DNA from: Eledone cirrhosa
Lineage: Eukaryota
Direction of reading: 5' to 3'
DNA: 64,000 bases
Assembly: GCA_964016885.1 (NCBI GenBank)
Contig: OZ024742.1
Span: 78,678,001-78,742,000, forward strand
Position 1 is the stretch's first letter, and each line of letters begins with the position of its first letter. A program made the translations under genes and the position numbers. Below the pieces are notes generated by a model. That model ran no database searches. It was not told the DNA's origin and saw nothing but the letters and a program-made list of their open reading frames with translations. Below, in pieces: positions 983 to 64,000 of the stretch.

Positions 983-3680
983 TCATCATCATCATCATCA
1001 TCATCAACGTTTAACGTCCGTGTTCCACGCTTGCATGGGTTTGGACGGGGGTAGTCCCACTTGAGGCAAGAGTGATTGTCTTGCTCGCATAGGACTGTCT
1101 GGCAGGTTTTCTACAGTTGGATGCCCTTCCTAACACCAACCACATTTACAGTGTGGGTCTGGGAGGTTTTTACCGTGTTGCCTACACGGCCACATTACAG
1201 CGTGGACTGTGTGTTTTTTTGTCGTGACACCTACACGATCTCATTTGTTTCGGCCCGGATGGCGCGGCACCAACATAACTTTACATAGGACGGGGTGGTG
1301 TGGATGGGGTGGGGGTGGTGGTGGTGGGACGGGGTGTATTTTGTTAGAGATGCCTACTGGCAAGGCGGGTCTTCTCTGTTACTGAGTACCGCCAAAGGTC
1401 TCGGTCCAGTGACATTGTCTTGGAGAGGTGTAAGTGTGTGAGGTCGGAGTTTATCAGCTCGTCCCAGGTTTTTCTAGGTCTGCCTATTCCGTGGCTACCG
1501 TCTATCTTTATTGCCCTGCACTTTGTTATACAGCTATCGACTTTCATGCGCATCACGTGTCCATACCAACGTAGCCTTCTCTCGAGTAAACAACATCTGA
1601 TCCCTCTTATCTCTAATTTTTTCCTTAGTTCGTTTATGCTTTGCCGTTCACGTATATTACTGTTACACATCCAGCGGAGCATGCAAGCTTCGTTCCTCTC
1701 TAGTCTGCGTATATCCTCTGCACACAATGCCCAGGTCTCACTGCCATGCAACATTGCTGTTCGTATGCAGGCATCGTACAACCTGCCTTTCATTTTTAGG
1801 GAGAACCCTTTAGCAGCTAATAGTGGTATAAGCTCTCTGAACTTTTTCCAACCAGTTCTGACTCTAGCTACAGTACTTTCAGAGCACCCTCCCCCACTGC
1901 TGATTTTATCGCCCAGGTAACGGAAGCTGTCCACTATTTCTATAGAACCCTCTGCGCAATTGAAAGAGCTAGTATTGTGTGGGCACTTGCTGCTACTTAT
2001 TGCACCAGAACACCGGCCACATGTAAAATCTATGTTCTTAGTTAGCTTACCTGTGATCCCACTACATCTTTTATGCACCCATACTTTGCATTTAGGACAC
2101 AAAATGGAGTTTCTACCTACGCCTTTCCTACACACCGAGCACGACCATTTCCCAGAAGGGACCGCCGCCTTGTTTTCTTTCCTACAAACTAGAACTTTGG
2201 TCTTAGCCAGGTTAATTTTAAGTCCTTTTGACTCTAGGCCGTGCTTCCATGTTTGGAATTTCTTCTCTAGCTCGGCCATTGATTCCGCTATGAGTGTCAG
2301 GTCGTCTGCGTATAGGAGTTCCCATGGGCAGCCTGTCTTGAACTCCTCTGTTATAGCCTGAAGGGCAATAATAAATAGTAGGGGGCTGAGAACAGAGCCC
2401 TGATGGACGCCAACTTTTACGCTAAACTCTTCACTATATTCGTTGTTAATTCTAACCTTGCTGACTGTTTCTTTATACATGGCTTGTATAGCCCTCACAA
2501 GCCATTCGTCAACGCCTAGTTTTCTAAGAGCCCACCAGATAATGGAGCGGGGGACTCTGTCGAAGGCTTTCTCCAAGTCGACAAAAGCTAAGTAGAGGGG
2601 TTTACCTTTAGCTAGGTACTTCTCCTGTAGTTGTCGTACTATGAAAAGAGCGTCTGTGGTACTTTTGCCTGACACAAACCCGAACTGCATTTCATCTAGG
2701 TCAATTCTCTCTCTGATTAGTTGCGCTATTACTTTTTCTGTGACCTTCATGACCTGGTCGATTAATTTAATGCCTCTATAGTTACTCCTATCTAGGGCGT
2801 CTCCTTTACCCTTATAACAGTTAACGATGATTCTGCTATGCCAGTCCTTCGGAACAACCCCATTCTGTACGACTTGGTTAACTATGCGGGTGACCATGGT
2901 GTGTCCCACCGTGCCAGATGCCTTCAGCATCTCAGCAACTATTTCCGAAGGCCCAGCCGCCTTACCTGTCTTCATATCCTTGATTGCCTTACTTATTATA
3001 CTCCCCTCGACTAACACTGCTGGTCCCTCTATTGGGTCGACATGGGGGAGACTGTCTTTCTCCCATTTATTCTCCTCATTTAGTAGCCTTTCATAGTGAC
3101 ACTTCCAAGCTGCCTTCTTATCAGTGTCGGTGATGGCAAGTATGCCATCATCGTTAAGTACACACTTCTCCCCGACAATATCACGATTTTCCTTGACGCA
3201 TTGCCTAGCAATCCTGAACACCTCACGTTTTTGGTCATCGCGTTGTAGGACATGCTTGAACTTTCTTTCCTCAGCTTCCCTTCTTGCTAAGTACACTTCT
3301 CTCCTAGCTTCCCTCCTGGCCACTTGATAGTCTACTCTACTTCCCCCATCCCGCCATACTTTCCAAGCCTGCTTTTTGGCCTTAATTGACTCCTCCACCT
3401 TACTGTTCCACCACCATGTTACTCTCCTCCTGCCTACAGGCCTGCTCCAGCCACAGACTTCGTCTGTGGCCAACAGCAGGTTTGCTTTCAGAAATTCCCA
3501 CTGTCCCTCTATATTGTCCGACTCTAAGTGTTCTTCCTTACTGTCGAAAGCATCAAGTAATATGTTTTGAAATTTATTTTTGGCTGTGGGGTCCTTTAGC
3601 TTCCATATTTTTCTCCTGAGGATAGTCCTCTTCTGCTGTCGAGTACGTCTCGACCTGACTATGAGGTCGCTAATTATCAA
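983..3680 (-). mobile_element. RTE-clade LINE, family A1, 5'-truncated, with 3' UTR and (GAT)n tail, inserted in (TA)n
   Basis: (CAT)n at 983-1007, 3' UTR to 1343, RT ORF, abrupt end at 3680; (TA)n on both sides. Confidence 0.93.
1344..3680 (-). pseudogene. Truncated LINE ORF: RT domain with embedded PHD-type finger; endonuclease domain missing
   Basis: Motifs YRGIKL, QFGF, FVDLEKAFD, GVHQGSVLSP, YADD, FRYLG, ERRLRWYGHV, GRPRKTW; uninterrupted 778 codons. Confidence 0.92.
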
Positions 3681-3760
3681 TATATATATATATATATATT
3701 AGAAAGTGAGGTTTTTTTTACAAAATGAAAAATAACCGAGGTGTCCTACACGAGTGGAAG

Positions 3761-5392: not shown

Positions 5393-5838
5393 CAACCATT
5401 CTCTACTCTCTACACACAGACATATTGCAACCATTCTCTTCTCTCTACACACAGACATATTGCAACCATTCTCTTCTCTCTACACACAGACATATTGCAA
5501 CCATTCTCTTCTCTCTACACACAGACATATTGCAACCATTCTCTTCTCTCTACACACAGACATATTGCAACCATTCTCTTCTCTCTACACACAGACATAT
5601 TGCAACCATTCTCTTCTCTCTACACGCAGACATATTGCAACCATTCTCTTCTCTCTACACACAGACATATTGCAACCATTCTCTTCTCTCTACACACAGA
5701 CATATTGCAACCTTTCGCTTCTCTCTACACGCAGACATATTGCAACCATTCTCTTCTCTCTACACACAGACATATTGAAACCATTCTCTTCCTCCTACAC
5801 ACAAATATTACAACCATTTTCTCTTGTATACACACACA
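5393..5838. repeat. 35-bp minisatellite, ~12 copies
   Basis: Unit CAACCATTCTCTTCTCTCTACACACAGACATATTG at 35-bp period; edge copies degenerate. Confidence 0.95.
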
Positions 5839-6603
5839 TAATACACACCAATCAATTCTACAAGATCAACCAGAGATCAATCATGGTAATGATTGTGATG
5901 ATTGTCACAGTAGACCAACAAGTGTGCAATAGTAGTAGTGATTCTATTGATAGTCATGGTGGTGGTGGTAGTGGTGATGGTGGTGATCGTAATGATAATG
6001 TTAGGAAGAGTGAAGCATGATGATCCTAACAACAATGAAGATGCTGCTGATGTTAGAGATGATATTCACTTCATCTCATAAAAGATATATGAAAACATAC
6101 AAATGAATAAATAAAATATAACAAAATCAAATGAAAATTTGACCAAAAGGAGACTATAATGAATTGAACTGAAAATGCAAACAAAACCAGCTGAAAAGAC
6201 AAAAGGGAAATTGGTAGAATTTCAAGAAGTCCTTCCACTGATCACATATTGAATAGCATGGTATTTATAGTAAGGAAATTGTCAGATAATGCATCAAAGT
6301 TACTCTATTCCGATTCCTCCACAAAGCCATTTATTCTGGGAAACTCTCCAAGAGAGATGGTTTATTGAAAAAGGAGGGGAAAAAAGACTAAACAAATAAA
6401 CAGAAAAACAAACAAAAACAAGAAAGAATAAAACATTAAGCACTTATTTGAGAATAGTTTACATTGGGATTACATGAGTGTGTGTGTGTGCATGCATATA
6501 TATACACACACACACACTAATATATGTATATGTGTGTGTATTTATATATATATATATATACACATACATATATGTGCTTGTGTGTGTATGTATGTATATA
6601 TGT

Positions 6604-16262: not shown

Positions 16263-17564
16263 AATGATGATATAAATATATATCCACCTATGGGTCCTGA
16301 TATAGAGGAAGAATTAACCCTAGCAAATGACTGATATTTATCACTCTTGAAAATATAAAAGGTAAAGTTGACTTTTGTAGGAATTAAACTCAGCCAGAGA
16401 AAATACAGCAAAGCAGTCTACCCAGTATTCTAATGACTCTACCAATTCATTAGAAATGCACATACACATGCGCCACCCTACATAAACTCATGCATGTTGC
16501 AAAGGAAAATGGCCCAGTTATTGGGTATTATTCTCACGACCATAAAGTTGTGGTTTCAATTCCTAGGACCCAGCAACAAGACTCTTTATTTCCTATTGTT
16601 GCTATTTACCTGTGCCAATCTATGTTGAAATTTGCTTTTCCTTGGGTGAACATTGATGGTGTGGAAAGGAGAGACAGACTTGCATGGATCACTGTTGGTC
16701 TTCTTTCGTGTAGGCGTACTCCTTCAAGAGAAACTTTCCAGTTGACTGAATATGGCCTTCTTTGTACATAAGCATTGATAGTTTCATAATTAAATTTGTT
16801 TATTTATTAAAAAAGGCATTTTTAATTGCTTGTTATATTAACCATCACATGTTCTACAATTCAAAACTATTCACTTTAAAATGTTTATATTTAGCTGAAA
16901 TCGTATGTGAGAATCTTTGTTAAATTATATTCCAAAACATAAACAAGATAATGATAAATTTAGTTGTATTATTAAAGACAAATTTTATTTTATTTTTAGA
17001 ATTAATTGAAAAATTTTAGGCAGTGTCTTTCATTAAAAATATAGGAATAGAAGTTTAAGCATTTTAAGTTTTCTTCTATGCAACATACTAGATAGTATGA
17101 TCATCTTTATGATGGTTCTTATCTATTTACATTTCTACTTACTTGCTGGTCAATCTCTCAACCAACCCCATACATCCAACTGTCTATGAAACATGACTAT
17201 TTTTGTACCTATCTAATCATCCAATTATTTTTTCTTCCTACTTTTCTTACCTATCAACTTATCAATTTATCTATATATCTAGAACAAATCTATTTCACTA
17301 GCTATCATATAACAATATATTTATGTATCTATGACATACTTGTTTACAAGCCCCTCCAACTATCTGTTCATCCACATTTACAATTCATTTCCATGTATCA
17401 GAGTAACTACACATTTATAGGTTTGACTATAGAGTTATACATCACTCTTCATATCAATCTAGATATATTTATCTACCTATCTAACTATTAACTTAAAATT
17501 CATGCCTGCATACACACACACACAGACCCATATATTTATCAATATGTATATGTATATCCAGAGT

Positions 17565-18973
17565 CAGTGTGTCAGAGAGAATTGTGATGTCATTGGAGAG
17601 AAGTGTATCCGGAATGATAAAGGTGAGCTTGCCCTCACAAGTGCCGAGAAGAAAGATGCATGGAAGAGTCATTATGATAGATTACTAAATGAGGAGAATG
17701 CATGGGAAGAAGAGACCCTACCCCAAGTAGACCCTATAGAGGGGCCAACAGTACAAGTCAGCAGCAGCGTAGTAAGTAAGGCAATCAAAGATATGAAGAT
17801 GGGGAAGGCAACCGGTCCATCGGGTATAGCTGCTGAGATGCTGAAAGCATCTGGGTCTGTAGGCCACACTATAACCACACGTATTGTTAACCAGGTAATA
17901 CTAGAAGGTGTACACAAGATGTACACAATGGGTACACAAGAGATGTAGCGGGATCTCAGGAAGCTTAATTAAGAATGTAGGCTTCACATGCAGCAGTTGT
18001 GCTGGGACAGCAAGCAGCAAACAGCGACAGGAAACAAGTACCACCAATCCCTGGGAGGGCTCTGTAGAAACAGTAGACAGCTTCTGCTACCTAGGTGACC
18101 AAATTAGCAGCGGAGGTGGGTGTTCAGAAAGTACAATAACTAGGGTAAGAACGGGATGGAAGAAGTTTAGGGAACTACTACCACTGCTAGCTGCAAAAGG
18201 CTTCTCCCTCAAAATGAAAGGCAGACTGTATGATGCGTGTATCCGAACAGAGATGTTGCATGGTAGTGACACCTGGGCGCTGAAGGTGGAAGACTTACGT
18301 AGATTAGAGAGAAACGAAGCCTGCATGCTCCGATGGATGTGTAATAGTAATATACGCGAACGACAAAGCATATATGAATTGAGAGAGAGACTGAGCATAA
18401 GAGGAATCAAATGCTGTGTGCAGGAGAGGCGGTTGCGTTGGTATGGACATGTGATGCGTATGAAGGATGACAGCTGCATAAAAAGGTGCAGAGCACTAGA
18501 AGTTGATGGAAACCGCGGAGTGGGGAGACCCAAGATGACCTGGGATGAGGTGATAAAAGCCGACCTTACCCAATTACACCTCTCAAAGGCGATGACACAC
18601 GACCGTGACCTCTGGCGTCACGCAGTAATACAGAGTACCCGACCGCCCATGGGTACAAGCTGAAGCATATAGACAATATGCCCCCACACCCCTTACTGCA
18701 AGGTGGTCGTGGAGGTGCCACGGCAAAAAAGCCCCCAGCCCACACTGTAAAGTGGTCGTGTAGGTGCCACGAAAAAGCACCCAGCACTCACTGTAAATGA
18801 GGTTGGTGTTAGGAAGGGCATCCAGCTGTAGAAATCAAGCCAAATCAGTTCCTGTATGAGCAAGGCATGGTCAGCCGACCAGACACTGCCCACAACAGGA
18901 CAACCCGTCTAACCCATGCTAGCATGGAAGAACGGACGTAAAACGGTGAAGATGATGATGATGATGATGATGA
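17565..18973 (+). mobile_element. RTE family A2 copy, 5'-truncated, with internal deletion of the RT core
   Basis: Matches ~46134-46476, then jumps to ~47250-48285; full 3' UTR and (GAT)n. Confidence 0.92.
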
Positions 18974-19318: not shown

Positions 19319-20213
19319 TCATCATTTTACGTCCGCTTTTCCCTGCTTGCAAGAGTGGGACGGGTCTTATTCAGCACAGCAACTCTCTACTCGTCACGGT
19401 CCTTCGTCATCTCCACCGTGAGCTTCAATGATCTGAGGTCTGTTCTCACCACCTCCGCCCATGTTTTTCGTGGTCTACCTCTACCACGTCTTCCTTCAAC
19501 TGGCATTTCCTGGCACTTCTTCACCCATCGGTCATCCTCCATGCGCATCACATGACCATAGCACCTCAGTCTCCTCTCCCATACACTACATTCTATCCCT
19601 CTCAGACACAGTTTCTCTCTCAACACATTTATGCTGGGTCGTTCACGCACATTTACACTGCACATCCAACGGAGCATGCTTGCCTCATTTCTCTCCAGCC
19701 ATCGCATATCCTCTGCAGTTGCTGCCCATGTCTCACTACCATGCAGCATCGCGCTCCTCACACAGGCATCATACAACTGGCCTTTCGTACACAGGGAGAA
19801 AGCCTTCTTCGTCAACAGAGGAAGCAGCTCCCTAAACTTCTTCCAACCCGTCCTTATTCTAGATACTATGGCCTCGGAACACCCTCCTCCCATGCTAATC
19901 TGATCTCCTAGGTACCGGAAGCTATCCACCACTTCTATAGCGCCCCCCTGCATCTGAAAAATGTGTCTATCAATGCGACTTCTACTGTCTAATTTCCCTG
20001 TACATCTACTGCATACATATTTCTCCCTACCTGTTAGTTTGCCTGCTATCCCGCTACATCTCTTGTGTACCCAGGATCTGCATTGTGTGCATTTTATAGA
20101 ATTTATGCCAGTTCCTTGTCTGCATATCGAACATGGCCATTTCCCTGACGGAATCAGAGTTTTGTCCTCTTCTCTACTCATCAACACTTTTGTCTTAGCT
20201 AGGTTCACTCTCA
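19316..20213 (-). mobile_element. RTE family B, 5'-truncated, includes PHD-type finger
   Basis: VNLAKTKVL-WPCSICRQG...CTQCRSWVHKRC...CSRC-FRYLG...GRGRPRKTW; (CAT)n tail next to (TA)n. Confidence 0.92.
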
Positions 20214-20214
20214 T

Positions 20215-20281
20215 GACAACCCGTCTAACCCATGCTAGCGTGGAAGAACGGACGTAAAAAGGTGATGATGATGATGATGAT
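20215..20281 (+). mobile_element. RTE family A2 terminal tail, inverted relative to the adjoining B copy
   Basis: GACAACCCGTCTAACCCATGCTAGCGTGGAAGAACGGACGTAAAA + (GAT)n. Confidence 0.88.
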
Positions 20282-20674
20282 ATATATATACACACACAGA
20301 CACACACATATATATATACACACACACACACACATATATATATACGCACACACATATATATTATGGGTGTGTGTATATATATATATATATGTGCGTGCTT
20401 ATGTATATATGTATATATACACACATACACTTATATTCAAATATAAATAGATATTTCCATATGTCCAGCGCAACAGTTTTTTCTATATAACCATATTATC
20501 TGAATTCTTATTATTCTGTAGAAAAGCTTTTATTTTTGCTATCAATAGACATGTTAAGCTCATTCAATAAATTAATATATTCAGTACTTTATATATCGGT
20601 CTCTGCACATGTATATATATGTTGGTGTGCGTTTGAGCACAAGTATATATATGTGTGGATAGACACACACAAAA

Positions 20675-25866: not shown

Positions 25867-28451
25867 ATCATCATCATCATCATCATCACCGTTTTACGTC
25901 CGTTCTTCCACGCTAGCATGGGTTAGACGGGTTGTCCTGTTGTGGGCAGTGTCTGGTCGGCTGACCATGCCTTGCTCATACAGGAACTGATCTGGCTTGA
26001 TTTCTACAGCTGGATGCCCTTCCTAACACCAACCTCATTTACAGTGAGTGCTGGGTGCTTTTTCGTGGCGCCTACACGTCCACTTTACAGTGTGGGCTGG
26101 GTGCTTTTTTGCCGTGGCACCTCCACGACCACCTTGCGGTGGGGGGGGGGGGGGCATATTGTTTATATGCTTCAGCATGTACCCATGGGAGGTCGGGTAC
26201 CCTGTATTACTGCGTGACGCCAGAAGTCACGGTCGTGTGTCATTGACTTTGAGAGGTGTAGTTGGGTAAGGTCGGCTTTTATCACCTCATCCCAAGTCAT
26301 CTTGGGTCTCCCCACTCCGCGGTTTCCATCAACTTCTAGTGCTCTGCACCTTTTTATGCAGCTGTCATCCTTCATACGCATCACATGTCCATACCAGCGT
26401 AACCGCCTCTCCTGCACGCAGCATTTGATTCCTCTTATGCTCAGTCTCTCTCTCAATTCATTTATGCTTTGTCGTTCACGTATATTACTGTTACACATCC
26501 ATCGGAGCATGCAGGCTTCGTTTCTCTCTAATCTACGTAAGTCTTCCACCTTCAGCGCCCAGGTCTCACTACCATGCAACATCGCTGTTCGGATACACGC
26601 ATCATACAGTCTGCCTTTCATTCTGAGGGAGAAGCCTTTTGCAGCTAGCAGTGGTAGTAGTTCCCTAAACTTCTTCCATCCCGTTCTTACCCTAGTTATT
26701 GTACTTTCTGAGCACCCACCTCCGTTGCTAATTCGGTCACCTAGGTAGCAGAAGCTGTCTACTGTTTCTACAGGGCCCTCCCAGAGATTGGTGGTACTTG
26801 TTTCCTGTGGCTGTTTGCTTGCTGTTTCAGCACAGCTGCTGCATGTGAATCCTACATTCTTAATTAAGCTTCCTGAGATCCCGCTACATCTCTTGTGTAC
26901 CCATTGTTTGCATTTGGGGCAAAGAATGGAGTTCCTACCTACACCTTTCCTACATACTGAGCAAGGCCATTTCCCTGAGGGGATCTGGGTTCTGTTTTCT
27001 CGTCTACTTATAAGGACCTTAGTCTTTGTCATGTTGACTTTGAGGCCCTTTCTCTCTAGTCCCTGCTTCCAGGTTTGGAATTTATTCTCTAGTTCTACCA
27101 TAGATTCAGCTATGAGTGCGAGGTCATCAGCATACAGGAGTTCCCATGGGCATCCGGTCTTAAACTCCTCCGTTATTGCCTGCAGGACTATGATGAACAG
27201 GAGAGGGCTAAGAACAGAGCCCTGGTGGACCCCAACCTGTACGCTAAATTCCTCGCTATACTCATTGCCAATCCTAACTTTGCTGACTGCTCCCCTATAC
27301 ATGGCTTGTACCGCTTTCACAAGCCATTCATCTACTCCTAGTTTTCTAAGAGCCCACCAGATTACTGCACGTGGAACTCTGTCAAAGGCTTTCTCAAGGT
27401 CGACAAATGCCAAGTAGAGTGGCTTACTTTTAGCTAGGTACTTTTCCTGTAATTGCCTCACAAGGAAGAGCGCATCAGTGGTGCCTTTCCCTGGTACAAA
27501 CCCAAATTGCATCTCGTCTATATTCACCCGGTCCCTAATCAGCTGTGCTATAACTCTTTCTGTTACTTTCATGACCTGGTCCATCAACTTTATACCTCTA
27601 TAGTTTCCTCTATCTAGTGCATCGCCTTTACCTTTGTAGCAGTTGACAATGATGCTACTGCACCAATCTTTTGGTATGGCCCCCTCTAGTATTACCTGGT
27701 TAACAATACGTGTGGTTATAGTGTGACCTACAGACCCAGATGCCTTCAGCATCTCGGCAGCTATACCCGATGGACCGGTTGCCTTCCCTATCTTCATATC
27801 TCTGATTGCCTTACTTACTACGCTGCCGCTGACTTGTACTGCTGGTCCCTCTATAGGGTCTACGTGGGGTAGGGTCTCTTCTTCCCATGCATTCTCCTCA
27901 TTTAGTAATCTATCATAATGACTCTTCCATGCATCTTTCTTCTCAGCACTTGTGAGGGCAAGCTCACCTTTATCATTCCGGATACACTTCTCTCCAATGA
28001 CATCACAACTATCTCTGACACACTGCCTCGCAATCTTGAATACCTCCTGTTTCTGGTCCTCACGTTGTAAAACATGCTTGAATTTTCTATCCTCTGCTTC
28101 CCTCCTAGCTAAGTATACTTGTCGCCTAGCTTCCCTCTTGGTCTCTATGTAATGTACCCTGCTCCCCCCGTTCTTCCATTCTTTCCATGCCTGTCTCTTG
28201 GCCTTGACTGCTTCATCTACCTTATTGTTCCACCACCAAGTCACTCTCCTCCTGCTTGAGGTCTTACTCCAGCCACAAACCTCATCCGTCGCCTCTAGTA
28301 AGTTATTTTTTAGGAACTCCCAGTTCTCTTCTACGTTAAATGTCTCTATCTGTTCTTCTTTACTGTCGTAGGCGTTGAGTAAAATATCTTTAAATCTGTT
28401 ACTGGTTGAGGGGACTTTCAGCTTCCAGATCTTTCTTCTCCAGGTTGGCCT
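25867..28451 (-). mobile_element. RTE family A2, 5'-truncated, near-identical to 45707-48285
   Basis: Open RT frame 26172-28451; protein differs from the full-length copy at about two visible residues (IET/IVT, KKF/KKL). Confidence 0.95.
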
Positions 28452-38933: not shown

Positions 38934-40876
38934 ATATATATATATTATGACCGTTTATAAGTGGGATACAGACTCTTGGCCTGTCTGGGAGATCAGTAGC
39001 CCTACTTCAGTACTGACTTGGTCTATGTAGACCTGTCCAACCTTTTCTAGCAGGGAAAGCAAATGTTAAATGATGATGGTATATCTTATTGGAAGTTACA
39101 TATTTATAATTGTTACTTCAAGATTCTTATTACTGGTTTTTAGTAAATTATGAAAATGTGGCATATGTTTTTATAGTTGTCCAAAGGTAGGCAACAAGAA
39201 ACTCAGAGTAACGATTTCTTAAGTAGCAGCTTCCAATGAACCATTGAATACTCTCTTTTCTTATTTGTTTAGTTTACATCTATTTTTACACACACACACA
39301 CACAATGAACTTGCAGAAGAATAAGCCTCGGAATGATTTGAAATGTTGTGAAGGCTGGATCTCACAAAAGAGATAACAAGTGACCAAAACAAGTGGAAAC
39401 CCACTGCCCTGAATGTGACCCAACAGTCAATTGTGTAAAATAGGTGTAAAATTATGATGATGATGAGGATGATGATAATGTTAACTGTGATAGTGATAAT
39501 GATGGTGATTATTATGGTGATGCATGCCTGTCTGTTCTACTCTCTAGTTATATGTATATTCATTACCATGTTACATTAATGTTTACATAACTAGTTAATA
39601 TTTGTGCATCATCAATACTATTATTAATCCAGCTTTGGCAATAGTCTTGTGGGGGGATAACTGGGGACATGATTGTAGGTCATCAAAGTTGATGACACAC
39701 TGGTTTAGTGACCAACTAAATATCATTAGAATTCAGTGATGCCACACTAGACTAACTCTGATATGAAACCTGACACACCTACTGGGCAAATGTCAAATGC
39801 CAATGAATAGCAATAAATCATGACATGGACTGAACTAGAGGAAGCAGCTAATTGCAATTAAAGCAGGAAGTAAACAAATAAATATTACATCATCTTTGTT
39901 GTCATCATCATTGTTGCTTTTGCATCTGCTTTTCCATGCTAACTTGGAGTAGACAAGACATTTTGAGAGTGTGATTTAATTGCCGCTTATGACATAACAA
40001 TACATTGTACCCATTCTACAATCCAGGATACTGTTTTTGCTGTTATCAAGTAATAGACAGAACACTGACAAAATTATTACCAGTCCAAAGTTGAGGATTG
40101 GCAGAATTGTTAGAGCTTCAGGAGATGGTGTGTGTTGTGTCTATTCTGGTTCTTTGTGTTCTGTGTTCAAATCCCAGTGTCTTATTTAGATAGTAGACAT
40201 CATACCTAAACAAATTTAACAACACCACATTACATTGTAAGGTTTCATACTCATTGTGATATGCATTCTGAGGCAATGTTTTACAGGCAGCTGCCTCCCT
40301 TGTTTTTAGTTCCCTATTATGGAATGAAGAACTACGGTATACCTATCCTAAAATGAATACATATGGAACATTGCAAATAAGTAAATAAATTATAAAGAGT
40401 CCAGAGTAGTAGATTTACAGAATTGTTAGAGCTTAAAGAGATGGTGTGTTGTGTTTATTCTGGTTCTTTGTGTTCCGAGTTCAAATCCCTCTGTGTCTCA
40501 TTTAAATATATTTGCTGTTAACTCTACAATGAGGTTATTCTTGTTAGTGAGGAATAACATGGTCCCAGAAGGAAAATATCTAACTATAGGCTTAACAGCA
40601 ATCTATATTGATGCAGGACATGGAAATAAGATAGTTGATAGTAGTTTCCATAAGACAAACTATATAAGAAGAGGAATTTGGTATATTAAACAATAGTTAG
40701 AATGGTTTAACTATTTAGTAGTTTCAGAAGAACAGATTGCAAGAATAGTCAACTGCCTTCTCTTTTCTTGGGCCCACACCTTTACATAAAGATGTAAGGG
40801 CACTATTGTGTCACACAACATGTCTTAGGCATTTAAAACCAAGCAATGCTTATCACTCTTCAGATAATTGTAAATA

Positions 40877-43800
40877 ATTGTATCTCTCTCAGTTATTTAC
40901 CATGCGACCCTCAGTTCCTACCCCCCCCCCTCTCTCTATGCACTTCTTTAAGGCTTACTACCCTGTCTTTAACCTAATTCATTCAATCTGAAAATATTGA
41001 AGAGATAAGACACTTTCCCATTCTTCTCTGCTAAAATGTACCACTAGAGCTGATTCAAATTTTCCCAGCCAGCCATCCACCTAATCTACGAAGGTATTTT
41101 AGCCTACATATTGTCGTTAATATTATGATGTTCCCTGCTGTATTAGCGTTAAATTTTCCCTGCTGTATTAGCGATAAATTTTCGAGGGTTTCTCTTAGTA
41201 GCTTTTTTCATGTCGTTAATATTATGATGTTCCCTGCTGTATTAGCGTTAAATTTTCCCTGCTGTATTAGCGATAAATTTTCGAGGGTTTCTCTTAGTAG
41301 CTTTTTTCATGACGTTATTATTGTTAATTTTACTGATGTAGTATTAACTTATTAACTTGGATATTTACCATGCGGTATTCTAATCCTATTGTATCTCTCT
41401 CAGTTATTTACCATGCGACCCTCAGTTCCTACCCCCCCCTCTCTCTATGCACTTCTTTAAGGCTTACTACCCTGTCTTTAACCTAATTCATTCAATCTGA
41501 AAATATTGAAGAGATAAGACACTTTCCCATTCTTCTCTGCTAAAATGTACCACTAGAGCTGATTCAAATTTTCCCAGCCAGCCATCCACCTAATCTACGA
41601 AGGTATTTTAGCCTACATATTGTCGTTAATATTATGATGTTCCCTGCTGTATTAGCGTTAAATTTTCCCTGCTGTATTAGCGATAAATTTTCGAGGGTTT
41701 CTCTTAGTAGCTTTTTTCATGTCGTTAATATTATGATGTTCCCTGCTGTATTAGCGTTAAATTTTCCCTGCTGTATTAGCGATAAATTTTCGAGGGTTTC
41801 TCTTAGTAGCTTTTTTCATGTCGTTAATATTATGATGTTCCCTGCTGTATTAGCGTTAAATTTTCCCTGCTGTATTAGCGATAAATTTTCGAGGGTTTCT
41901 CTTAGTAGCTTTTTTCATGTCGTTAATATTATGATGTTCCCTGCTGTATTAGCGTTAAATTTTCCCTGCTGTATTAGCGATAAATTTTCGAGGGTTTCTC
42001 TTAGTAGCTTTTTTCATGTCGTTAATATTATGATGTTCCCTGCTGTATTAGCGTTAAATTTTCCCTGCTGTATTAGCGATAAATTTTCGAGGGTTTCTCT
42101 TAGTAGCTTTTTTCATGACGTTATTATTGTTAATTTTACTGATGTAGTATTAACTTATTAACTTGGATATTTACCATGCGGTATTCTAATCCTATTGTAT
42201 CTCTCTCAGTTATTTACCATGCGACCCTCAGTTCCTACCCCCCCCCTCTCTCTATGCACTTCTTTAAGGCTTACTACCCTGTCTTTAACCTAATTCATTC
42301 AATCTGAAAATATTGAAGAGATAAGACACTTTCCCATTCTTCTCTGCTAAAATGTACCACTAGAGCTGATTCAAATTTTCCCAGCCAGCCATCCACCTAA
42401 TCTACGAAGGTATTTTAGCCTACATATTGTCGTTAATATTATGATGTTCCCTGCTGTATTAGCGTTAAATTTTCCCTGCTGTATTAGCGATAAATTTTCG
42501 AGGGTTTCTCATAGTAGCTTTTTTCATGTCGTTAATATTATGATGTTCCCTGCTGTATTAGCGTTAAATTTTCCCTGCTGTATTAGCGATAAATTTTCGA
42601 GGGTTTCTCTTAGTAGCTTTTTTCATGTCGTTAATATTATGATGTTCCCTGCTGTATTAGCGTTAAATTTTCCCTGCTGTATTAGCGATAAATTTTCGAG
42701 GGTTTCTCTTAGTAGCTTTTTTCATGTCGTTAATATTATGATGTTCCCTGCTGTATTAGCGTTAAATTTTCCCTGCTGTATTAGCGATAAATTTTCGAGG
42801 GTTTCTCTTAGTAGCTTTTTTCATGACGTTATTATTGTTAATTTTACTGATGTAGTATTAACTTATTAACTTGGATATTTACCATGCGGTATTCTAATCC
42901 TATTGTATCTCTCTCAGTTATTTACCATGCGACCCTCAGTTCCTACCCCCCCCCTCTCTCTATGCACTTCTTTAAGGCTTACTACCCTGTCTTTAACCTA
43001 ATTCATTCAATCTGAAAATATTGAAGAGATAAGACACTTTCCCATTCTTCTCTGCTAAAATGTACCACTAGAGCTGATTCAAATTTTCCCAGCCAGCCAT
43101 CCACCTAATCTACGAAGGTATTTTAGCCTACATATTGTCGTTAATATTATGATGTTCCCTGCTGTATTAGCGTTAAATTTTCCCTGCTGTATTAGCGATA
43201 AATTTTCGAGGGTTTCTCTTAGTAGCTTTTTTCATGTCGTTAATATTATGATGTTCCCTGCTGTATTAGCGTTAAATTTTCCCTGCTGTATTAGCGATAA
43301 ATTTTCGAGGGTTTCTCTTAGTAGCTTTTTTCATGACGTTATTATTGTTAATTTTACTGATGTAGTATTAACTTATTAACTTGGATATTTACCATGCGGT
43401 ATTCTAATCCTATTGTATCTCTCTCAGTTATTTACCATGCGACCCTCAGTTCCTACCCCCCCCCCTCTCTCTATGCACTTCTTTAAGGCTTACTACCCTG
43501 TCTTTAACCTAATTCATTCAATCTGAAAATATTGAAGAGATAAGACACTTTCCCATTCTTCTCTGCTAAAATGTACCACTAGAGCTGATTCAAATTTTCC
43601 CAGCCAGCCATCCACCTAATCTACGAAGGTATTTTAGCCTACATATTGTCGTTAATATTATGATGTTCCCTGCTGTATTAGCGTTAAATTTTCCCTGCTG
43701 TATTAGCGATAAATTTTCGAGGGTTTCTCATAGTAGCTTTTTTCATGTCGTTAATATTATGATGTTCCCTGCTGTATTAGCGTTAAATTTTCCCTGCTGT

Positions 43801-44623
43801 ATTAGCGATAAATTTTCGAGGGTTTCTCTTAGTAGCTTTTTTCATGTCGTTAATATTATGATGTTCCCTGCTGTATTAGCGTTAAATTTTCCCTGCTGTA
43901 TTAGCGATAAATTTTCGAGGGTTTCTCTTAGTAGCTTTTTTCATGTCGTTAATATTATGATGTTCCCTGCTGTATTAGCGTTAAATTTTCCCTGCTGTAT
44001 TAGCGATAAATTTTCGAGGGTTTCTCTTAGTAGCTTTTTTCATGACGTTATTATTGTTAATTTTACTGATGTAGTATTAACTTATTAACTTGGATATTTA
44101 CCATGCGGTATTCTAATCCTATTGTATCTCTCTCAGTTATTTACCATGCGACCCTCAGTTCCTACCCCCCCTCTCTCTATGCACTTCTTTAAGGCTTACT
44201 ACCCTGTCTTTAACCTAATTCATTCAATCTGAAAATATTGAAGAGATAAGACACTTTCCCATTCTTCTCTGCTAAAATGTACCACTAGAGCTGATTCAAA
44301 TTTTCCCAGCCAGCCATCCACCTAATCTACGAAGGTATTTTAGCCTACATATTGTCGTTAATATTATGATGTTCCCTGCTGTATTAGCGTTAAATTTTCC
44401 CTGCTGTATTAGCGATAAATTTTCGAGGGTTTCTCTTAGTAGCTTTTTTCATGTCGTTAATATTATGATGTTCCCTGCTGTATTAGCGTTAAATTTTCCC
44501 TGCTGTATTAGCGATAAATTTTCGAGGGTTTCTCTTAGTAGCTTTCTTCATGACGTTATTATTGTTAATTTTACTGATGTAGTATTAACTTGGATATTTA
44601 CCATGCGACCCTCAGTTCCTACC
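40877..44623 (+). repeat. Nested tandem array: six monomers (starts 40877, 41388, 42194, 42902, 43412, 44121), each ~312 bp plus n x 99 bp, n = 2,5,4,2,4,2
   Basis: First five monomer lengths 511, 806, 708, 510, 709; the 99-mer itself holds a 25-bp direct repeat (TTCCCTGCTGTATTAGCGWTAAATT); copies almost identical. Confidence 0.96.
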
Positions 44624-44866
44624 TCACAATGTCCCTCCCCCCCACCCCCACACACCACCATAGTCTATTCGACCAATCAAACCTAGCATGCCATTTCCAC
44701 TGCTGCTGCTGCTACTACCTGCCTAACTAACTCTCTCCTCCTCTGGCGCATCCCAACACACCCTGCCATTACCCCACCACCACTGTCCTTCTAGCCCTCA
44801 ATTTTCCCACCGTTATGGATGGATGAGCTGGGAATACACGAGCAACTCTGAATCAATAGATGAAAT

Positions 44867-47800
44867 ATGAATCTGCGAGCTACCAAGCACCCACGTGAAG
44901 CGCCAACCCAGAGACCCTCCCCTACGAGTGTCGACAAATGCCCAAAACTCCGAGTTGGTACCATCAATGTAGGCTCAATGAAAGGAAGAGCAGGAGAAAT
45001 CGTAGAAATGCTAGAGCGAAAGGAAGTTGATGTATGCTGTGTGCAAGAGACTAGATGGAGAGGAGGGTCTGCTAGAGTCCTTGTAGGAAAAAGCCAGTGC
45101 TACAAATTTTTCTGGGTGGGAAATGACGATGGGATGGGTGGTGTAGGTATACTATTAGCTGACAAGTGGGTAGATAAAGTAATCTCAGTGTACAGGGTAA
45201 ATGCAAGAATCATTAAACTCAGACTAGTCCTGAATAAGACAATTACCACAATAATATCAGCTTACGCACCCCAATCGGGGCTGCCAGACGAACTTAAGGA
45301 TAGGTTTTACGAGTCCCTAATACACACTACTGCTCTAACAGACGACAAGGACTTCCTAATCATTGCAGGAGATTTTAACGGACACATAGGTAAACACTGC
45401 GACGGCTTCAATAGAGTACATGGAGGCCATGGAGTTGGCACAAGAAATGAGGAAGGATTCAGACTTCTAGAATTCTGCGACGCCAATGACATGTCGATAT
45501 GTAACACAAACTTTAAAAAACCCGACAACCACCTGATCACCTATAGATCAGGGGAGCACTCTAGTCAGTTAGATTTTATCCTCATCAGAGGACGTGACAG
45601 ATGGACGGTCGTAAACACAAAAGCCTTCCCTAGTGAGGAATGTACATCCCAACATAGCTTAGTTGTCAGCGACCTCACGGTCAGAACTAGACGAGCCCTG
45701 AAACAGAGGCCAACCTGGAGAAGAAAGATCTGGAAGCTGAAAGTCCCCTCAACCAGTAACAGATTTAAAGATATTTTACTCAACGCCTACGACAGTAAAG
45801 AAGAACAGATAGTGACATTTAACGTAGAAGAGAACTGGGAGTTCCTAAAAAATAACTTACTAGAGGCGACGGATGAGGTTTGTGGCTGGAGTAAGACCTC
45901 AAGCAGGAGGAGAGTGACTTGGTGGTGGAACAATAAGGTAGATGAAGCAGTCAAGGCCAAGAGACAGGCATGGAAAGAATGGAAGAACGGGGGGAGCAGG
46001 GTACATTACATAGAGACCAAGAGGGAAGCTAGGCGACAAGTATACTTAGCTAGGAGGGAAGCAGAGGATAGAAAATTCAAGCATGTTTTACAACGTGAGG
46101 ACCAGAAACAGGAGGTATTCAAGATTGCGAGGCAGTGTGTCAGAGATAGTTGTGATGTCATTGGAGAGAAGTGTATCCGGAATGATAAAGGTGAGCTTGC
46201 CCTCACAAGTGCTGAGAAGAAAGATGCATGGAAGAGTCATTATGATAGATTACTAAATGAGGAGAATGCATGGGAAGAAGAGACCCTACCCCACGTAGAC
46301 CCTATAGAGGGACCAGCAGTACAAGTCAGCGGCAGCGTAGTAAGTAAGGCAATCAGAGATATGAAGATAGGGAAGGCAACCGGTCCATCGGGTATAGCTG
46401 CCGAGATGCTGAAGGCATCTGGGTCTGTAGGTCACACTATAACCACACGTATCGTTAACCAGGTAATACTAGAGGGGGCCATACCAAAAGATTGGTGCAG
46501 TAGCATCATTGTCAACTGCTACAAAGGTAAAGGCGATGCACTAGATAGAGGAAACTATAGAGGTATAAAGTTGATGGACCAGGTCATGAAAGTAACAGAA
46601 AGAGTTATAGCACAGCTGATTAGGGACCGGGTGAATATAGACGAGATGCAATTTGGGTTTGTACCAGGGAAAGGCACCACTGATGCGCTCTTCCTTGTGA
46701 GGCAATTACAGGAAAAGTACCTAGCTAAAAGTAAGCCACTCTACTTGGCATTTGTCGACCTTGAGAAAGCCTTTGACAGAGTTCCACGTGCAGTAATCTG
46801 GTGGGCTCTTAGAAAACTAGGAGTAGATGAATGGCTTGTGAAAGCGGTACAAGCCATGTATAGGGGAGCAGTCAGCAAAGTTAGGATTGGCAATGAGTAT
46901 AGCGAGGAATTTAGCGTACAGGTTGGGGTCCACCAGGGCTCTGTTCTTAGCCCTCTCCTGTTCATCATAGTCCTGCAGGCAATAACGGAGGAGTTTAAGA
47001 CCGGATGCCCATGGGAACTCCTGTATGCTGATGACCTCGCACTCATAGCTGAATCTATGGTAGAACTAGAGAATAAATTCCAAACCTGGAAGCAGGGACT
47101 AGAGAGAAAGGGCCTCAAAGTCAACATGACAAAGACTAAGGTCCTTATAAGTAGACGAGAAAACAGAACCCAGATCCCCTCAGGGAAATGGCCTTGCTCA
47201 GTATGTAGGAAAGGTGTAGGTAGGAACTCCATTCTTTGCCCCAAATGCAAACAATGGGTACACAAGAGATGTAGCGGGATCTCAGGAAGCTTAATTAAGA
47301 ATGTAGGATTCACATGCAGCAGCTGTGCTGAAACAGCAAGCAAACAGCCACAGGAAACAAGTACCACCAATCTCTGGGAGGGCCCTGTAGAAACAGTAGA
47401 CAGCTTCTGCTACCTAGGTGACCGAATTAGCAACGGAGGTGGGTGCTCAGAAAGTACAATAACTAGGGTAAGAACGGGATGGAAGAAGTTAAGGGAACTA
47501 CTACCACTGCTAGCTGCAAAAGGCTTCTCCCTCAGAATGAAAGGCAGACTGTATGATGCGTGTATCCGAACAGCGATGTTGCATGGTAGTGAGACCTGGG
47601 CGCTGAAGGTGGAAGACTTACGTAGATTAGAGAGAAACGAAGCCTGCATGCTCCGATGGATGTGTAACAGTAATATACGTGAACGACAAAGCATAAATGA
47701 ATTGAGAGAGAGACTGAGCATAAGAGGAATCAAATGCTGCGTGCAGGAGAGGCGGTTACGCTGGTATGGACATGTGATGCGTATGAAGGATGACAGCTGC

Positions 47801-47986
47801 ATAAAAAGGTGCAGAGCACTAGAAGTTGATGGAAACCGCGGAGTGGGGAGACCCAAGATGACTTGGGATGAGGTGATAAAAGCCGACCTTACCCAACTAC
47901 ACCTCTCAAAGTCAATGACACACGACCGTGACTTCTGGCGTCACGCAGTAATACAGGGTACCCGACCTCCCATGGGTACATGCTGA
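44867..47986 (+). CDS. LINE polyprotein: apurinic-like endonuclease + reverse transcriptase with embedded PHD-type zinc finger (1039 aa)
   Basis: APE motifs TINV, VQET, SAYAPQ, GDFNGH, LDFIL, QH; RT motifs QFGF, DLEKAFD, QGSVLSP, YADD (47024-47035), YLG; C4HC3 at 47189-47326. Confidence 0.96.
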   Translation: MNLRATKHPREAPTQRPSPTSVDKCPKLRVGTINVGSMKGRAGEIVEMLERKEVDVCCVQETRWRGGSARVLVGKSQCYKFFWVGNDDGMGGVGILLADKWVDKVISVYRVNARIIKLRLVLNKTITTIISAYAPQSGLPDELKDRFYESLIHTTALTDDKDFLIIAGDFNGHIGKHCDGFNRVHGGHGVGTRNEEGFRLLEFCDANDMSICNTNFKKPDNHLITYRSGEHSSQLDFILIRGRDRWTVVNTKAFPSEECTSQHSLVVSDLTVRTRRALKQRPTWRRKIWKLKVPSTSNRFKDILLNAYDSKEEQIVTFNVEENWEFLKNNLLEATDEVCGWSKTSSRRRVTWWWNNKVDEAVKAKRQAWKEWKNGGSRVHYIETKREARRQVYLARREAEDRKFKHVLQREDQKQEVFKIARQCVRDSCDVIGEKCIRNDKGELALTSAEKKDAWKSHYDRLLNEENAWEEETLPHVDPIEGPAVQVSGSVVSKAIRDMKIGKATGPSGIAAEMLKASGSVGHTITTRIVNQVILEGAIPKDWCSSIIVNCYKGKGDALDRGNYRGIKLMDQVMKVTERVIAQLIRDRVNIDEMQFGFVPGKGTTDALFLVRQLQEKYLAKSKPLYLAFVDLEKAFDRVPRAVIWWALRKLGVDEWLVKAVQAMYRGAVSKVRIGNEYSEEFSVQVGVHQGSVLSPLLFIIVLQAITEEFKTGCPWELLYADDLALIAESMVELENKFQTWKQGLERKGLKVNMTKTKVLISRRENRTQIPSGKWPCSVCRKGVGRNSILCPKCKQWVHKRCSGISGSLIKNVGFTCSSCAETASKQPQETSTTNLWEGPVETVDSFCYLGDRISNGGGCSESTITRVRTGWKKLRELLPLLAAKGFSLRMKGRLYDACIRTAMLHGSETWALKVEDLRRLERNEACMLRWMCNSNIRERQSINELRERLSIRGIKCCVQERRLRWYGHVMRMKDDSCIKRCRALEVDGNRGVGRPKMTWDEVIKADLTQLHLSKSMTHDRDFWRHAVIQGTRPPMGTC

Positions 47987-50900
47987 AGCATATAAACAAT
48001 ATGCCCCCCCCCCCCACCGCAAGGTGGTCGTGGAGGTGCCACGGCAAAAAAGCACCCAGCCCACACTGTAAAGTGGACGTGTAGGCGCCACGAAAAAGCA
48101 CCCAGCACTCACTGTAAATGAGGTTGGTGTTAGGAAGGGCATCCAGCTGTAGAAATCAAGCCAGATCAGTTCCTGTATGAGCAAGGCATGGTCAGCCGAC
48201 CAGACACTGCCCACAACAGGACAACCCGTCTAACCCATGCTAGCGTGGAAGAACGGACGTAAAACGGTGATGATGATGATGATGAGATCTGGCCACAATA
48301 AATTTGTTCCAGAAATAGAAAGGGTGAGATTTGAACTCAGATCTCAAAACACATACCTCAAAGCATTTATTCTATTCAATATTCTAATGACTCTGCCAAC
48401 TGGCCATCCTAATGGCAAAATGGTGCCATTATTTTTAATATCAAACCATAAAAGAGGAAGCTCAGACAACAAATAAATGAAATAAGACTGGCAGAAAAGG
48501 AAGAGTGAGTTGGATTTTTCTATTCATGCTATTTATTTTGTTTTTTTCATATATTACTGGTGTCATCATTATTTTAAATGCATTATTGTCGGATGTTGTT
48601 GGTACTGTTACCATAGGATTCTATGCAATTGTTGTTGTCATTCAAAAGTTTGTGTTTTGCCATTGTAGTTGTTGTATCCATTCATTTTCATTATAACTGA
48701 TGTTGCTGCTGCTGTTGTTGATGTATTTATTACTATAGCTGCTGGTGTTGTTGAAGTTATCTTCATCATCATTGTCTCTGCACTTGTTACACTGTTGTTG
48801 TTATAATTACCAATTGTTGTTGTTGTTGTATTGTAGGCACCATTGTTAGTGATGTCTTTTCACATTGAAAAAGATGCAGCCTCTAGTTTCTATCATTATG
48901 ATATTATAATTGCTTTTGTTGTTGCCATCACAGTAGCATCTATTGTTGTTATTTTTATTGTTGTTGTTTGAGAAGTAGGAATGTGTGTGTGTAGTGGAAA
49001 GAAGAAACTTGTCATCAGTGATAAAGATGTAATTATAATAATGATGTGTCATTTTTGTTTGCTTGCTTGCTTCCTTAGCTTTGTTTTTCATACAAAATAC
49101 ACCTGGTGTTCTCTCTGCCAATCCACCTCTCATTCTCATACAAAAGATGGACAACATAGGAACACAAACTCATACACCATACACAGAGAATTACTATTCT
49201 TCTGAGAATACATCAAATGTCTAGAGAACATCTTTAGAAAATATCACTAAAGAAGAAACATATACTTGCAACACTACAAAAAAAGCATTAGTAAAAATAA
49301 AGAAAAAAAACAAGCAAATGCATACATGCACACATATACACACATGTATACATACATGCATTGCGTACATACATATATACATACACTACATATATAAATA
49401 CATACATAGTACGACAACACTGAGTGTTCTCTTGGGAATAGAAGGCTATTAGACTTAGTGTAATGAATATTATTCATCCTTTATGATTTTGCTATCAACT
49501 AGCCTATTTAAGAATCTTCCTTTTTTCATAATCCTGATGAGTCCCATTATGCATTGTGTTGTTGAGTATGCCATTGAAATTTCTATCTCATGTGGTTTAT
49601 CAATATAACTGAACTCATGTTTCTTCAAGCTATATCTAAAAACTGACAATTGAAACAAAAGTCTCTTTGCAATTTTACAACGTTTCTGTTGCTTCACAAT
49701 TAAATAGGCTGGACTATCCTAATGAACCTATTAACAACTAAGAGAATAAAACTGTTCAAACTAAATATTTTTTTTACTATATTTCTAATAAAATCCACTG
49801 TCCATGATCTTCAATTAATCTTGAAATTAATCAAGAATTTTCAAAGATTTAGTAAAATAACTTTTCAGTTAAGCTGGTACGTGGAGGTTATTACATAATG
49901 TTATGATGAAAGGGGTTTTGATAAATATCATCATCATCCATCATCTAGGTGTGCTTATTGCACAGATAGTCATAACTCATCTTTCCAATCTGTTCGGTCT
50001 GCCATTGCTTGTGGTAGGTCTTCTCAGGCATACTCAGAATCCTTACACAGTTGCTTTATGCAGGTTCAATGTAGTCTACCAACATTTGTGTACCCATGCT
50101 TCGGTTGCTAAAGAAGAATGTTGCTGCTGAAATAATCCTTTGCTCTCCAGCAATGTCTAGTGAAGAACAAGATTCGTTGATAAATATAAACATTTTAAAT
50201 AAACAGTTTGTATTTTAAAACCAGGATTGGTTTTAGACTATGTGATATCTTGGCCAGAGTCACTGTGCAGTACCTCCATTGGTCATACATTTTCTCAATG
50301 GCCTATGGGTGCCTTTAGCAGAATCTGCTTTATAATAAGTAAACCCGAAATTTCTGTCAGGCTCTCAATTTTGTGCCATTATGTAAATCATTTGGGTTGG
50401 TGACAATTTTTTTTTTCTTTTTACATTTTGATAAATAGTCTACGGCTACTATCCTCTTTCTCCAAGGGATTTGGAGGTGTGGGGGTGAAAATGGACAGTT
50501 TGGCTCACAGAGAACCCAAAAATCATGGCAAACAATTGAACTAAACAATATGTTGAATGTTATAGGGACGAAGAAAGGAATTCGATTGACAAGACCCCAG
50601 ACCTCATTCGCTTGCAGAGTTTGTCTCGTCAAATCGGACAAAGGAAATAATGTTTCCATTGGTCTTTCCATTGCTGATACTATCTCCCAGAAATAAAGTG
50701 TCTTACTTAAGGACGTAATGCATAACCCAGTCTGAAGATCAAACTCACAACTTCATGATTGTGAATCCAATTCTCTAAGCACTGAGCCACACACCTTCAC
50801 TTCAATGTTATATTTCCTGCTCTTGGATTGCAAATGCATAACCTTCATATGATGTATCATGATGTATTTATGTGTATATACAAGTATTACAACAACTATC

Positions 50901-62375: not shown

Positions 62376-63121
62376 GTTTACATATATATATATATATATA
62401 TATGTGTTTTGCAACGGGTCACTTTGTGGCTCAATGAAGAGTTAATAAATTAAATAATCAGAGCTATATATCATAAAACATGTCTATAGAATCACCAGAT
62501 AAAATATATACCGTTTCCTCTCCCAATTAGCATAATTAACCATATAAAAAATCAATTAGACCAAGCTATAAGAATAAAGGCTCCTATGAAGAAATCTCCG
62601 ACAAATAACCGAAAGCAGCCCTTCGCGGATGGTTGCGACGGAGTATTTATCGAGTATTTGGACAGCGTGTATAAATCGACCAAATATACAGTCAACTAAA
62701 CAGAATTAGGTGTAAAATAAACTAGAAGAAAAGTGAACATATTTAGTTACCTCTACCATGGTTTCGTCCGCATTTTAAGATATCCGATAAGATTGGAAAT
62801 CTAGAGCACCGGACTCTTCAGGAGTTAGCTCAAATTTAGACAATTAATTTTCCAAAGTGATCGCGCCAAGAATACATTAAAAAATGGCTAAGAATCGTGA
62901 AGTTAGAAAGGATGTGATTAGTTGCTTACGGCTGGTAGGCTTTTTGCTAGAAAGCGCAGCCCAATACAGCCAAAATTGTATCTCAACCTAAAGGGAGATT
63001 ATTACATATAAAGGTTTACATATATATATATATATGTGTTTTGCAACAGGTCACTATGCTAATTGGGAGAGGAAACGGTATATATTTTATCTGGTGATTC
63101 TATAGACATGTTTTATGATAT
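62371..63121 (-). mobile_element. Non-coding hammerhead-bearing retroelement (retrozyme or Penelope pseudo-LTR-like)
   Basis: Direct repeat 62371-62423 / 63009-63055; inverted repeat 62468-62534 / 63055-63121; central hammerhead; no ORF of 60 aa or more in the unit; flanked by (TA)n. Confidence 0.75.
62745..62830 (-). ncRNA. Type I hammerhead ribozyme, intact catalytic core
   Basis: AGCUAACUC-CUGAAGA-GUCCG-[39-nt hairpin]-CGGAC-GAAA-CCAUGG-UA-GAGGUAACU; predicted cut after GUA, between 62754 and 62753. Confidence 0.85.
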
Positions 63122-63168
63122 CTCTATATATATACATATCTATCTATCTAGCCGCCGCTGCCGCCGTC

Positions 63169-64000
63169 ACCATCACCATCATCATCATCATCATTTTATA
63201 TCCGCTTTTCCCTGCTTGCAAGGGTGGGACCGGTCTTATTCAGCACAGCATCTCTCCACTCGTCACGGTTCTTCGTCATCTCCACCGTGAGATTCAACGA
63301 TCTGAGGTCTGTTCTCACCACCTCCGCCCATGTTTTTCGTGGTCTACCTCTACCACGTCTTCCTTCAACTGGCATTTCCTGGCACTTCTTCACCCATCGA
63401 TCATCCTCCATGCACATCACATGTCCATACCACCGCAGTCTCTTCTCTCGCACACTACATTCTATCCCTCTCAGACACAGTTTCTCTCTCAATACATTCA
63501 TGCTGGGTCGTTCACGCACATTTACACTGCACATCCAACGGAGCATGCTTGCCTCATTTCTCTCCAGCCGTCGCATATCCTCTGCAGTTGCTGCTCATGT
63601 ATCACTACCATACAGCATCGCGCTCCTCACACAGGCATCATATATCGGCCCTTCATACGCAGGGAGAAAGCCTTCTTCGTCAACAGAGGAAGCAGCTCCC
63701 TAAACTTCTTCCAACCCATCCTTATTCTAGATACTATGGCCTCAGAACACCCCCTCCCATGCTAATCTGATCTAATAGGTACCGGAAGCTATCCACCACT
63801 TCTATAGCACCCGCCTGCATTTGAAAAATGTGTCTATCAATGCGACTTCTACTGTCTAATTTCCCTGTACATCTACTGCAAACCTATTTCTCTCTACCTG
63901 TTAGTTTGCCTGCTATCCCACTACATCTCTTGTGTACCCAGGATCTGCATTGTGTGCATTTTATAGAATTTATGCCAGTTCCTTTTCTGCATATCGAACA
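63169..64000 (-). mobile_element. RTE family B 3' portion, runs off the window end; frameshifted
   Basis: Colinear with 19316-20132; LERNEASMLRWMC...GRGRPRKTW; (CAT)n tail. Confidence 0.92.

Follow-up and report, generated by a model that had tools for sequence, protein, structure and literature searches.

A tandem monomer array as the mobile 5' end of a young single-ORF LINE in Eledone cirrhosa

Introduction

In the window (the whole stretch of 64,000 nucleotides of Eledone cirrhosa DNA analysed here, positions 78,678,001 to 78,742,000 of contig OZ024742.1) an intact LINE is directly preceded by a nested tandem array, and the question arises whether this array is the element's own 5' end, and how such a terminal array could be maintained in a retrotransposon family whose copies are variably truncated at the 5' side. 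For mouse L1 the regaining of the 5' monomers lost at each jump is stated as an open problem, and unequal crossing over, slippage and template switching by the reverse transcriptase (RT) were left as speculation (bioRxiv 2022.08.06.500894). An original prediction, made from the letters of the locus, had described the array as a modular, self-renewing promoter and 5' UTR of about 4 kb, spliced to the LINE.

Structure of the window copy

The array occupies 40877..44606 (+ strand) and, based on its sequence and its genome-wide linkage, is the 5'-truncated front end of the LINE. Its six monomers start at 40877, 41388, 42194, 42902, 43412 and 44121 and contain n = 2, 5, 4, 2, 4 and 2 inner units, respectively. 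A monomer consists of a head of about 234 bp, n units of 99 bp and a tail of 78 bp; the lengths are 311-313+99n, and 289+198 for the last one. Two imperfect 25-bp copies are present in each 99-mer (an 18-mer core was matched 38 times, i.e. 2 x 19), and the 19 inner units fall into three sequence types, three of them carrying a substitution (in monomers 3 and 5 the first unit has T>A at its base 84, and one further unit has T>C), while the length of a poly-C run (7-10) is the sole difference among the six heads. The predicted nesting of 25-bp, 99-bp and monomer repeats, six times over and nearly mutation-free, was thus confirmed. The motif TATTTACCATGCG was counted 12 times, and TCAGTT twice in each monomer. 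The two-monomer block at 42194..43411 (+, n=4 and n=2) is repeated at 43412-44606 with the same rare T>A in both, and is likely a local duplication; this substitution was found at none of the other loci compared.

At 44607 GACCCTCAGTTCCTACC leads on into a non-repeated leader, or tether, of 260 bp (44607..44866, +). It is followed by a single ORF of 1039 amino acids (44867..47986, +), intact as originally stated, with an APE-type endonuclease, a reverse transcriptase and a PHD finger, and by a 3' UTR (47987..48284, +) with a (GAT)n tail at its end. The last monomer had been supposed to be spliced to the leader through a shared 13-mer: the continuation into the leader was found as described, but the short 13-mer junction is also found within arrays (6 loci), and L190 has the long junction running directly into the leader, so that the short one is a variant of the monomer and not a special splice. 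Similarly, the two TCAGTT motifs per monomer are real, but they had been placed at the monomer start, and phasing from the leader puts them at its end. That the window copy starts with base 1 of the monomer as originally delimited is due only to its being cut there; the 5' ends of other copies lie all over the monomer. AGAT at 40862..40865 (+) and the same letters at 48285..48288 (+) are the left and right copies of a likely target-site duplication of 3-4 bp. Eleven extra bases at the 5' junction (40866..40876, +) derive from neither flank nor monomer, and are not in the contig of another sample, X2, which is discussed below.

The 4-kb leader region (array and tether) contains 93 ATGs, and protein would therefore probably be made from RNAs starting near the last monomers, or via internal entry. 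A coding role for the 99-bp (33-codon) unit was rejected, as frames of 172-205 amino acids are limited to the 99-bp type; the inner period is 98 bp in most multi-unit copies. The monomer junction at 41375-41403 (CTAAT, a pyrimidine run and CAG) has what we take to be a resemblance to a splice acceptor.

Pfam matches in the ORF were PF03372, PF14529 and PF00078 (exo/endo/phos, RVT_1) plus PHD, and its best PDB match was L1 ORF2p (E 7.5e-33). An N-terminal APE endonuclease followed by reverse transcriptase, together with a fixed 3' tail, variable 5' truncation and no LTRs, identifies the family as an APE-type LINE; the best target-site duplication matches in 46 copies are mostly 3-5 bp, lengths which chance can yield. 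The single ORF, the absence of ORF1 and the microsatellite 3' tail are RTE features, and judged from this architecture alone the family probably belongs to RTE, single-ORF organization being found likewise in Vingi and L2-2 (PMC13708176). At least 120 homologues were listed; these, like the atlas clusters, bear no clade names. Parts of the 3' UTR (47987-48284) have matches among short repeats of very high abundance, both in flanks and in other sequencing runs, at depths up to millions, as a SINE having its tail in common with the LINE would.

Further repeats were recognized elsewhere in the window. A second 5'-truncated copy of the array-bearing family lies at 25871-28451 (-), 99.8% identical over 2581 bp, and an older, broken one at 17561-18964 (95.7%). 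Fragments of a third family, which is more distant (DNA identity about 68-71%) and has many genomic copies at 98-99%, lie at 19387-20430 (-) and 63106-63770, and a separate 35-bp minisatellite (12.9 copies, 94% matches) at 5393-5840.

Genome-wide linkage of the array and the LINE

The assembly comprises 3.0 Gb. The best 40 places of a search with the monomer head fell in 26 loci including the window, and all 25 others lead into the LINE, one of them through an internal deletion; among further loci 12 of 13 do so, and the remaining one consists of array throughout the 16.9 kb followed. Conversely, the leader as query found 39 other copies, each with array sequence directly upstream (less than 35 bp of it in 3). 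In C1 the first 100 monomer-junction matches formed 33 clusters, all just upstream of the ORF start or the leader junction, as were 31 of the 32 tail-motif clusters; array motifs were present upstream of 29 of 33 leader matches and missing at 4. Counting exact motifs over the genome, we obtained 548 array-leader junctions, 532-566 leader matches, 830 ORF starts (about 270 thus having no exact leader motif), 4959 ORF ends and, as a measure of satellite scale, 2462 monomer tails. In the fetched copies the array is always upstream and in the same orientation as the LINE, and was never found as the 3' flank of a copy.

Array type and ORF are also inherited together: the 98-bp inner junction was detected in 50 of 51 informative copies with T at 46663 and in 0 of 35 with A (Fisher p 2e-23). 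The family is very young, the ORF being intact in 82 of 104 aligned copies, with a median of 2 rare changes per 3.4 kb. These data show that the array forms the 5' end of the family itself, co-mobilised with the ORF; the original claim that it is part of the element rather than a mere neighbour therefore stands, and the check proposed with it, that the monomer occurs genome-wide upstream of the LINE with variable n, gave the expected outcome.

The contig of run X2 shows 0 differences to 40510-40865 and then continues with 372 letters unlike the window. It thus departs from the flank precisely where the insertion was predicted, as an empty allele would; the AGAT duplication is consistent with this break. 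It is likely, as anticipated, that the array is absent from the empty site. The flank contig came from X2 alone, X1, X5 and X6 yielding none and being uninformative on the state of the site, and a search for a flank paralog as a proxy of the empty site gave two short partial matches and nothing more.

With these data there is hardly any room for an independent satellite hit by a LINE insertion or for an assembly artefact. Array lengths were taken from one assembly, and at G000:C1:81424773 a monomer-tail match, possibly a solo piece, has neither leader nor ORF motif near; both could be cited for such a reading. It is contradicted by the constant upstream position and orientation, by the way in which the array tracks ORF alleles, and by the flank contig of the other sample, which is without the array.

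Some further observations concern individual loci and other samples. At L195 and L282 (G000:C4:7082500-7102499) the array extends over at least 16.9 kb, and its monomers are rearranged in complex ways. L009, L074 and L112 have parts of the ORF or array in inverted orientation at their 5' junction, as twin priming would leave. In the runs X1, X6 and X7, labelled as three other organisms, near-identical pieces of the window LINE family were met (contigs of 1351 bp and 1273 bp, each differing at a single place, and shorter pieces in X7; compared region L075:6064-7558, leader and endonuclease), which could be due to recent horizontal transfer or to cross-sample contamination.

5' ends of the copies and the role of the array

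For the 5' ends we excluded the window, the loci found through the array, the tandem duplicate L179 and open-ended arrays, and one copy with an N gap was treated as censored. The remaining 111 closed 5' ends are spread over 85 positions with at most 4 at any one of them, and no preferred start within the monomer was detected (scan P 0.10-0.55); 42 of 85 5' flanks are TA-rich. Had transcription started at the TCAGTT motifs of each monomer, as was originally suggested in calling them initiator-like, full-length copies would be phased. In fact the window, L064, L119, L120 and L185 begin within 10 bases of the originally delimited monomer start, but several of the copies starting there came from a search favouring whole heads. 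In the region of the motifs (monomer bases 8-45) 7 ends were found against 6.6 expected in the first set (n=85), and 1 against 2.0 in the second (n=26), and the sister monomer described below contains no TCA[GT]T[CT]. Starts at TCAGTT are accordingly very improbable. Another candidate, a start site at head 98-112 near TCATTC, had 10 ends against 2.6 expected in the first set; this excess was post hoc, was set as a test ahead of the second set, and was rejected there (1 against 0.9 in 26 new ends).

Array lengths range from about 20 bp to 35 kb with a median of about 1 kb, so the length of about 4 kb given in the original prediction is right for the window copy but represents one draw from this range. 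Over the first 2 kb of the array copies are lost at a rate of 0.70 per kb (117 copies, 6 censored), and over the ORF at 0.58-0.66 per kb, as calculated from the exact-motif counts 4959, 830 and 548. Owing to this similarity the ends resemble ordinary drop-off of RT on a template which exceeds most copies in length. A unique cap upstream of the longest arrays was looked for and rejected: five long arrays were traced to their ends, and all begin mid-monomer.

The monomer array is likely to have a promoter role. The array might instead be a passenger minisatellite in the 5' UTR, devoid of any promoter function, the RNA coming from the leader or from read-through. It would grow as tandem repeats do. 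In favour of this reading, no fixed start is seen, an Rfam scan of 43900-48400, limited to known families, gave no ribozyme (and a chance match to snR32, E 2.4), fold z-scores are -0.7 to 0.1, and the n=2 monomer is not a CpG island (GC 0.36, CpG o/e 0.77; the inner unit has CpG o/e 1.38 at GC 0.34). Tandem repeats of plant LTR retrotransposons, too, occasionally expand into satellites (PMC7004042). Nevertheless, the leader and junction counts are flat (532-566), which means that no 5' ends pile up inside the leader, and because the arrays were retrotransposed with the ORF, the RNA must start upstream of the array or within it.

The sister family bears on the same question. Its ORF is 74-75% identical to that of the window family, and one of its copies, 5'-truncated, is found in the window itself at 1344-3698 (-); this copy is very young, 40 of the 40 hits listed being 100% identical over 253 bp. 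Twenty sister copies were fetched, 10 of them picked for their long 5' ends, and in 12 of the 20 a 635-bp tandem monomer was reached, extending over more than 8 kb in two, with scattered 5' ends. It joins at the homologous start of the leader (bases 13-55 of the window leader have 84-86% similarity to the start of the sister leader), and its comparison with the window monomer by BLAST gave nothing better than E 0.14. In these two families, then, unrelated 5' monomers appear to have replaced each other between lineages. Different monomers at the same point suggest that the arrangement was selected, and in the light of this the passenger minisatellite is unlikely.

Long arrays and regrowth

Past 4 kb the loss drops to 0.15-0.24 per kb, and arrays reaching 10 kb are 2 of 117 against 0.16 expected. 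Four LINE-linked arrays measure 14.4, 15.7, 16.0 and 34.6 kb, the last being 62 monomers; each has the same leader at its end and starts mid-monomer, and two of the four come from the leader-found set. At constant drop-off (0.58-0.70 per kb) 560 copies should contain fewer than 0.2 arrays of 14 kb and fewer than 2e-6 of 34 kb. Furthermore, locus-private variants recur as blocks of 13 and 8 monomers (4.5-6 kb); an autocorrelation test for blocks on poly-C was weak and missed the lag of 13 monomers. At 52 loci 79 singleton variants were found against 122 expected from the age of the ORF, and 37 multi-copy variants; the private-ORF yardstick behind this expectation is inflated, since about 114 of more than 500 copies were aligned. 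The agreement of neighbouring monomers in n, quoted below, also speaks for regrowth. The arrays of 14-35 kb above the drop-off rate, taken together with the block duplications, make regrowth as DNA likely, and they support the claim that the array is renewable.

We consider it probable that this mobile 5' end of a young single-ORF LINE acts as a monomeric promoter and 5' UTR which is truncated and regrown. Copies with long arrays would be transcribed from inside the array or across it, and RT would fall off at about 0.6-0.7 per kb, leaving most daughters with about 1 kb. A few daughters would then expand their monomers as DNA by unequal exchange or slippage and would become the next donors, a donor bias that we infer. 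As to transcription, the run search returned a single RNA run, containing 0.06 of the words.

The array might, on the other hand, be built during insertion, RT re-priming on the matching place of another monomer of the same or a second RNA, so that one or two monomers are copied repeatedly and the template is in effect endless. The element would then possess no true 5' end and would write an open-ended satellite at each insertion. Several data suit this alternative. From the ORF into the array the loss per kb shows no increase, though most copies have about 1 kb of it. Monomers are uniform within a locus yet differ between siblings: neighbouring monomers have equal n in 43 of 57 pairs against 19.4 when permuted within four ORF clades, and siblings have equal n at the same rank in 51 of 180 pairs. 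Template switching, moreover, is among the mechanisms proposed for monomer recovery in mouse L1 (bioRxiv 2022.08.06.500894). The array is longer where private ORF changes are fewer (rho -0.30, p 0.005, n=88), and this presence of longer arrays on younger copies speaks against slow growth in place and keeps re-priming as a rival. The copy with the 34.6-kb array has 0-1 private ORF changes, thus either growth was very fast or the length was inherited. What weighs against re-priming is the expectation of fewer than 2e-6 arrays of 34 kb quoted above, together with the blocks of 8 and 13 monomers sharing private variants, which need a long initial template. We regard it as rather unlikely, but if it were true, a single-ORF retrotransposon would in a single step rebuild its own promoter and seed satellites as long as 35 kb.

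The donor of the window copy was sought among related arrays. Its array type (99-bp junction, (TC)3 and the unit T>A) is present at no other locus among the matches listed, about 44 further matches of the 99-bp junction perhaps including a relative, and its leader allele is unique genome-wide; both speak for regrowth. The 15.7-kb array of the 99-bp type in C4 has none of the five derived alleles of the window, and the 13 other (TC)3 loci are all without the 99-bp junction; both candidates were rejected.

The preferred model of truncation and regrowth could be separated from re-priming by comparisons of donors with daughters and of alleles, as the family offers hundreds of near-identical copies, with n as a built-in counter and private variants as markers. 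The front ends of these LINEs become satellites of 10-35 kb, which short-read consensus libraries are likely to miss.

Comparison with known systems

The 5' A-module of the Dictyostelium element TRE5-A can be tandem. This 200-bp module has promoter activity on a non-LTR element, similarly to what we propose here, but TRE5-A has two ORFs and targets tRNA genes (PMC3159450). LTR retrotransposons of Lathyrus also bear short arrays which occasionally become long, but these arrays are internal and expand near centromeres (PMC7004042), whereas the array of the window family is terminal, at the 5' end of a LINE, and stays attached to the ORF. Some LINEs carry a self-cleaving 5' ribozyme, HDV-like or of another kind; in the window family none was detected among known Rfam families.

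Among cephalopod elements, RTE-BovB of about 3.2-3.6 kb is expanded (PMC10294476), and RTE-2_OV of octopus, set beside the window family by its description, also has a single ORF with endonuclease, RT and zinc finger and a microsatellite 3' end; it differs in an ORF of 1109 amino acids and a 5' UTR of about 600 nt, and the word 'tandem' is absent from the main text of that paper (PMC9115989). UTRs are not mentioned in the accessible part of PMC13282606. In the literature outside Repbase and most subscription papers, long tandem arrays at the 5' end of RTE-type LINEs were not found described.

The closest likeness is to mouse L1, where the 5' UTR consists of A, Tf or Gf monomers and a tether (PMC5381506, PMC9022269). 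In both cases a non-repeated tether of about 250 bp connects the ORF with tandem monomers of variable number, copies begin inside a monomer, younger copies hold more monomers, and unrelated 5' UTRs are swapped among related lineages (PMC5381506, PMC9022269). Mouse monomers are CpG islands of about 200 bp, 3-4 on average and more than 10 in 7 of 5765 loci, and starts cluster at nt 70-110 near a YY1 site (PMC9022269). The window family shares neither the clustered starts nor the CpG-island monomers: it has one ORF, AT-rich monomers of 410-2200 bp with a variable inner repeat, no preferred start, and up to 62 monomers in 34.6 kb. It should be emphasized that its variable tandem monomers and tether move with the element, as in the mouse L1 type, by which the monomer-and-tether design is extended to single-ORF LINEs. 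We conclude that the arrangement is a variant of the monomer design of mouse L1, and a far longer one.
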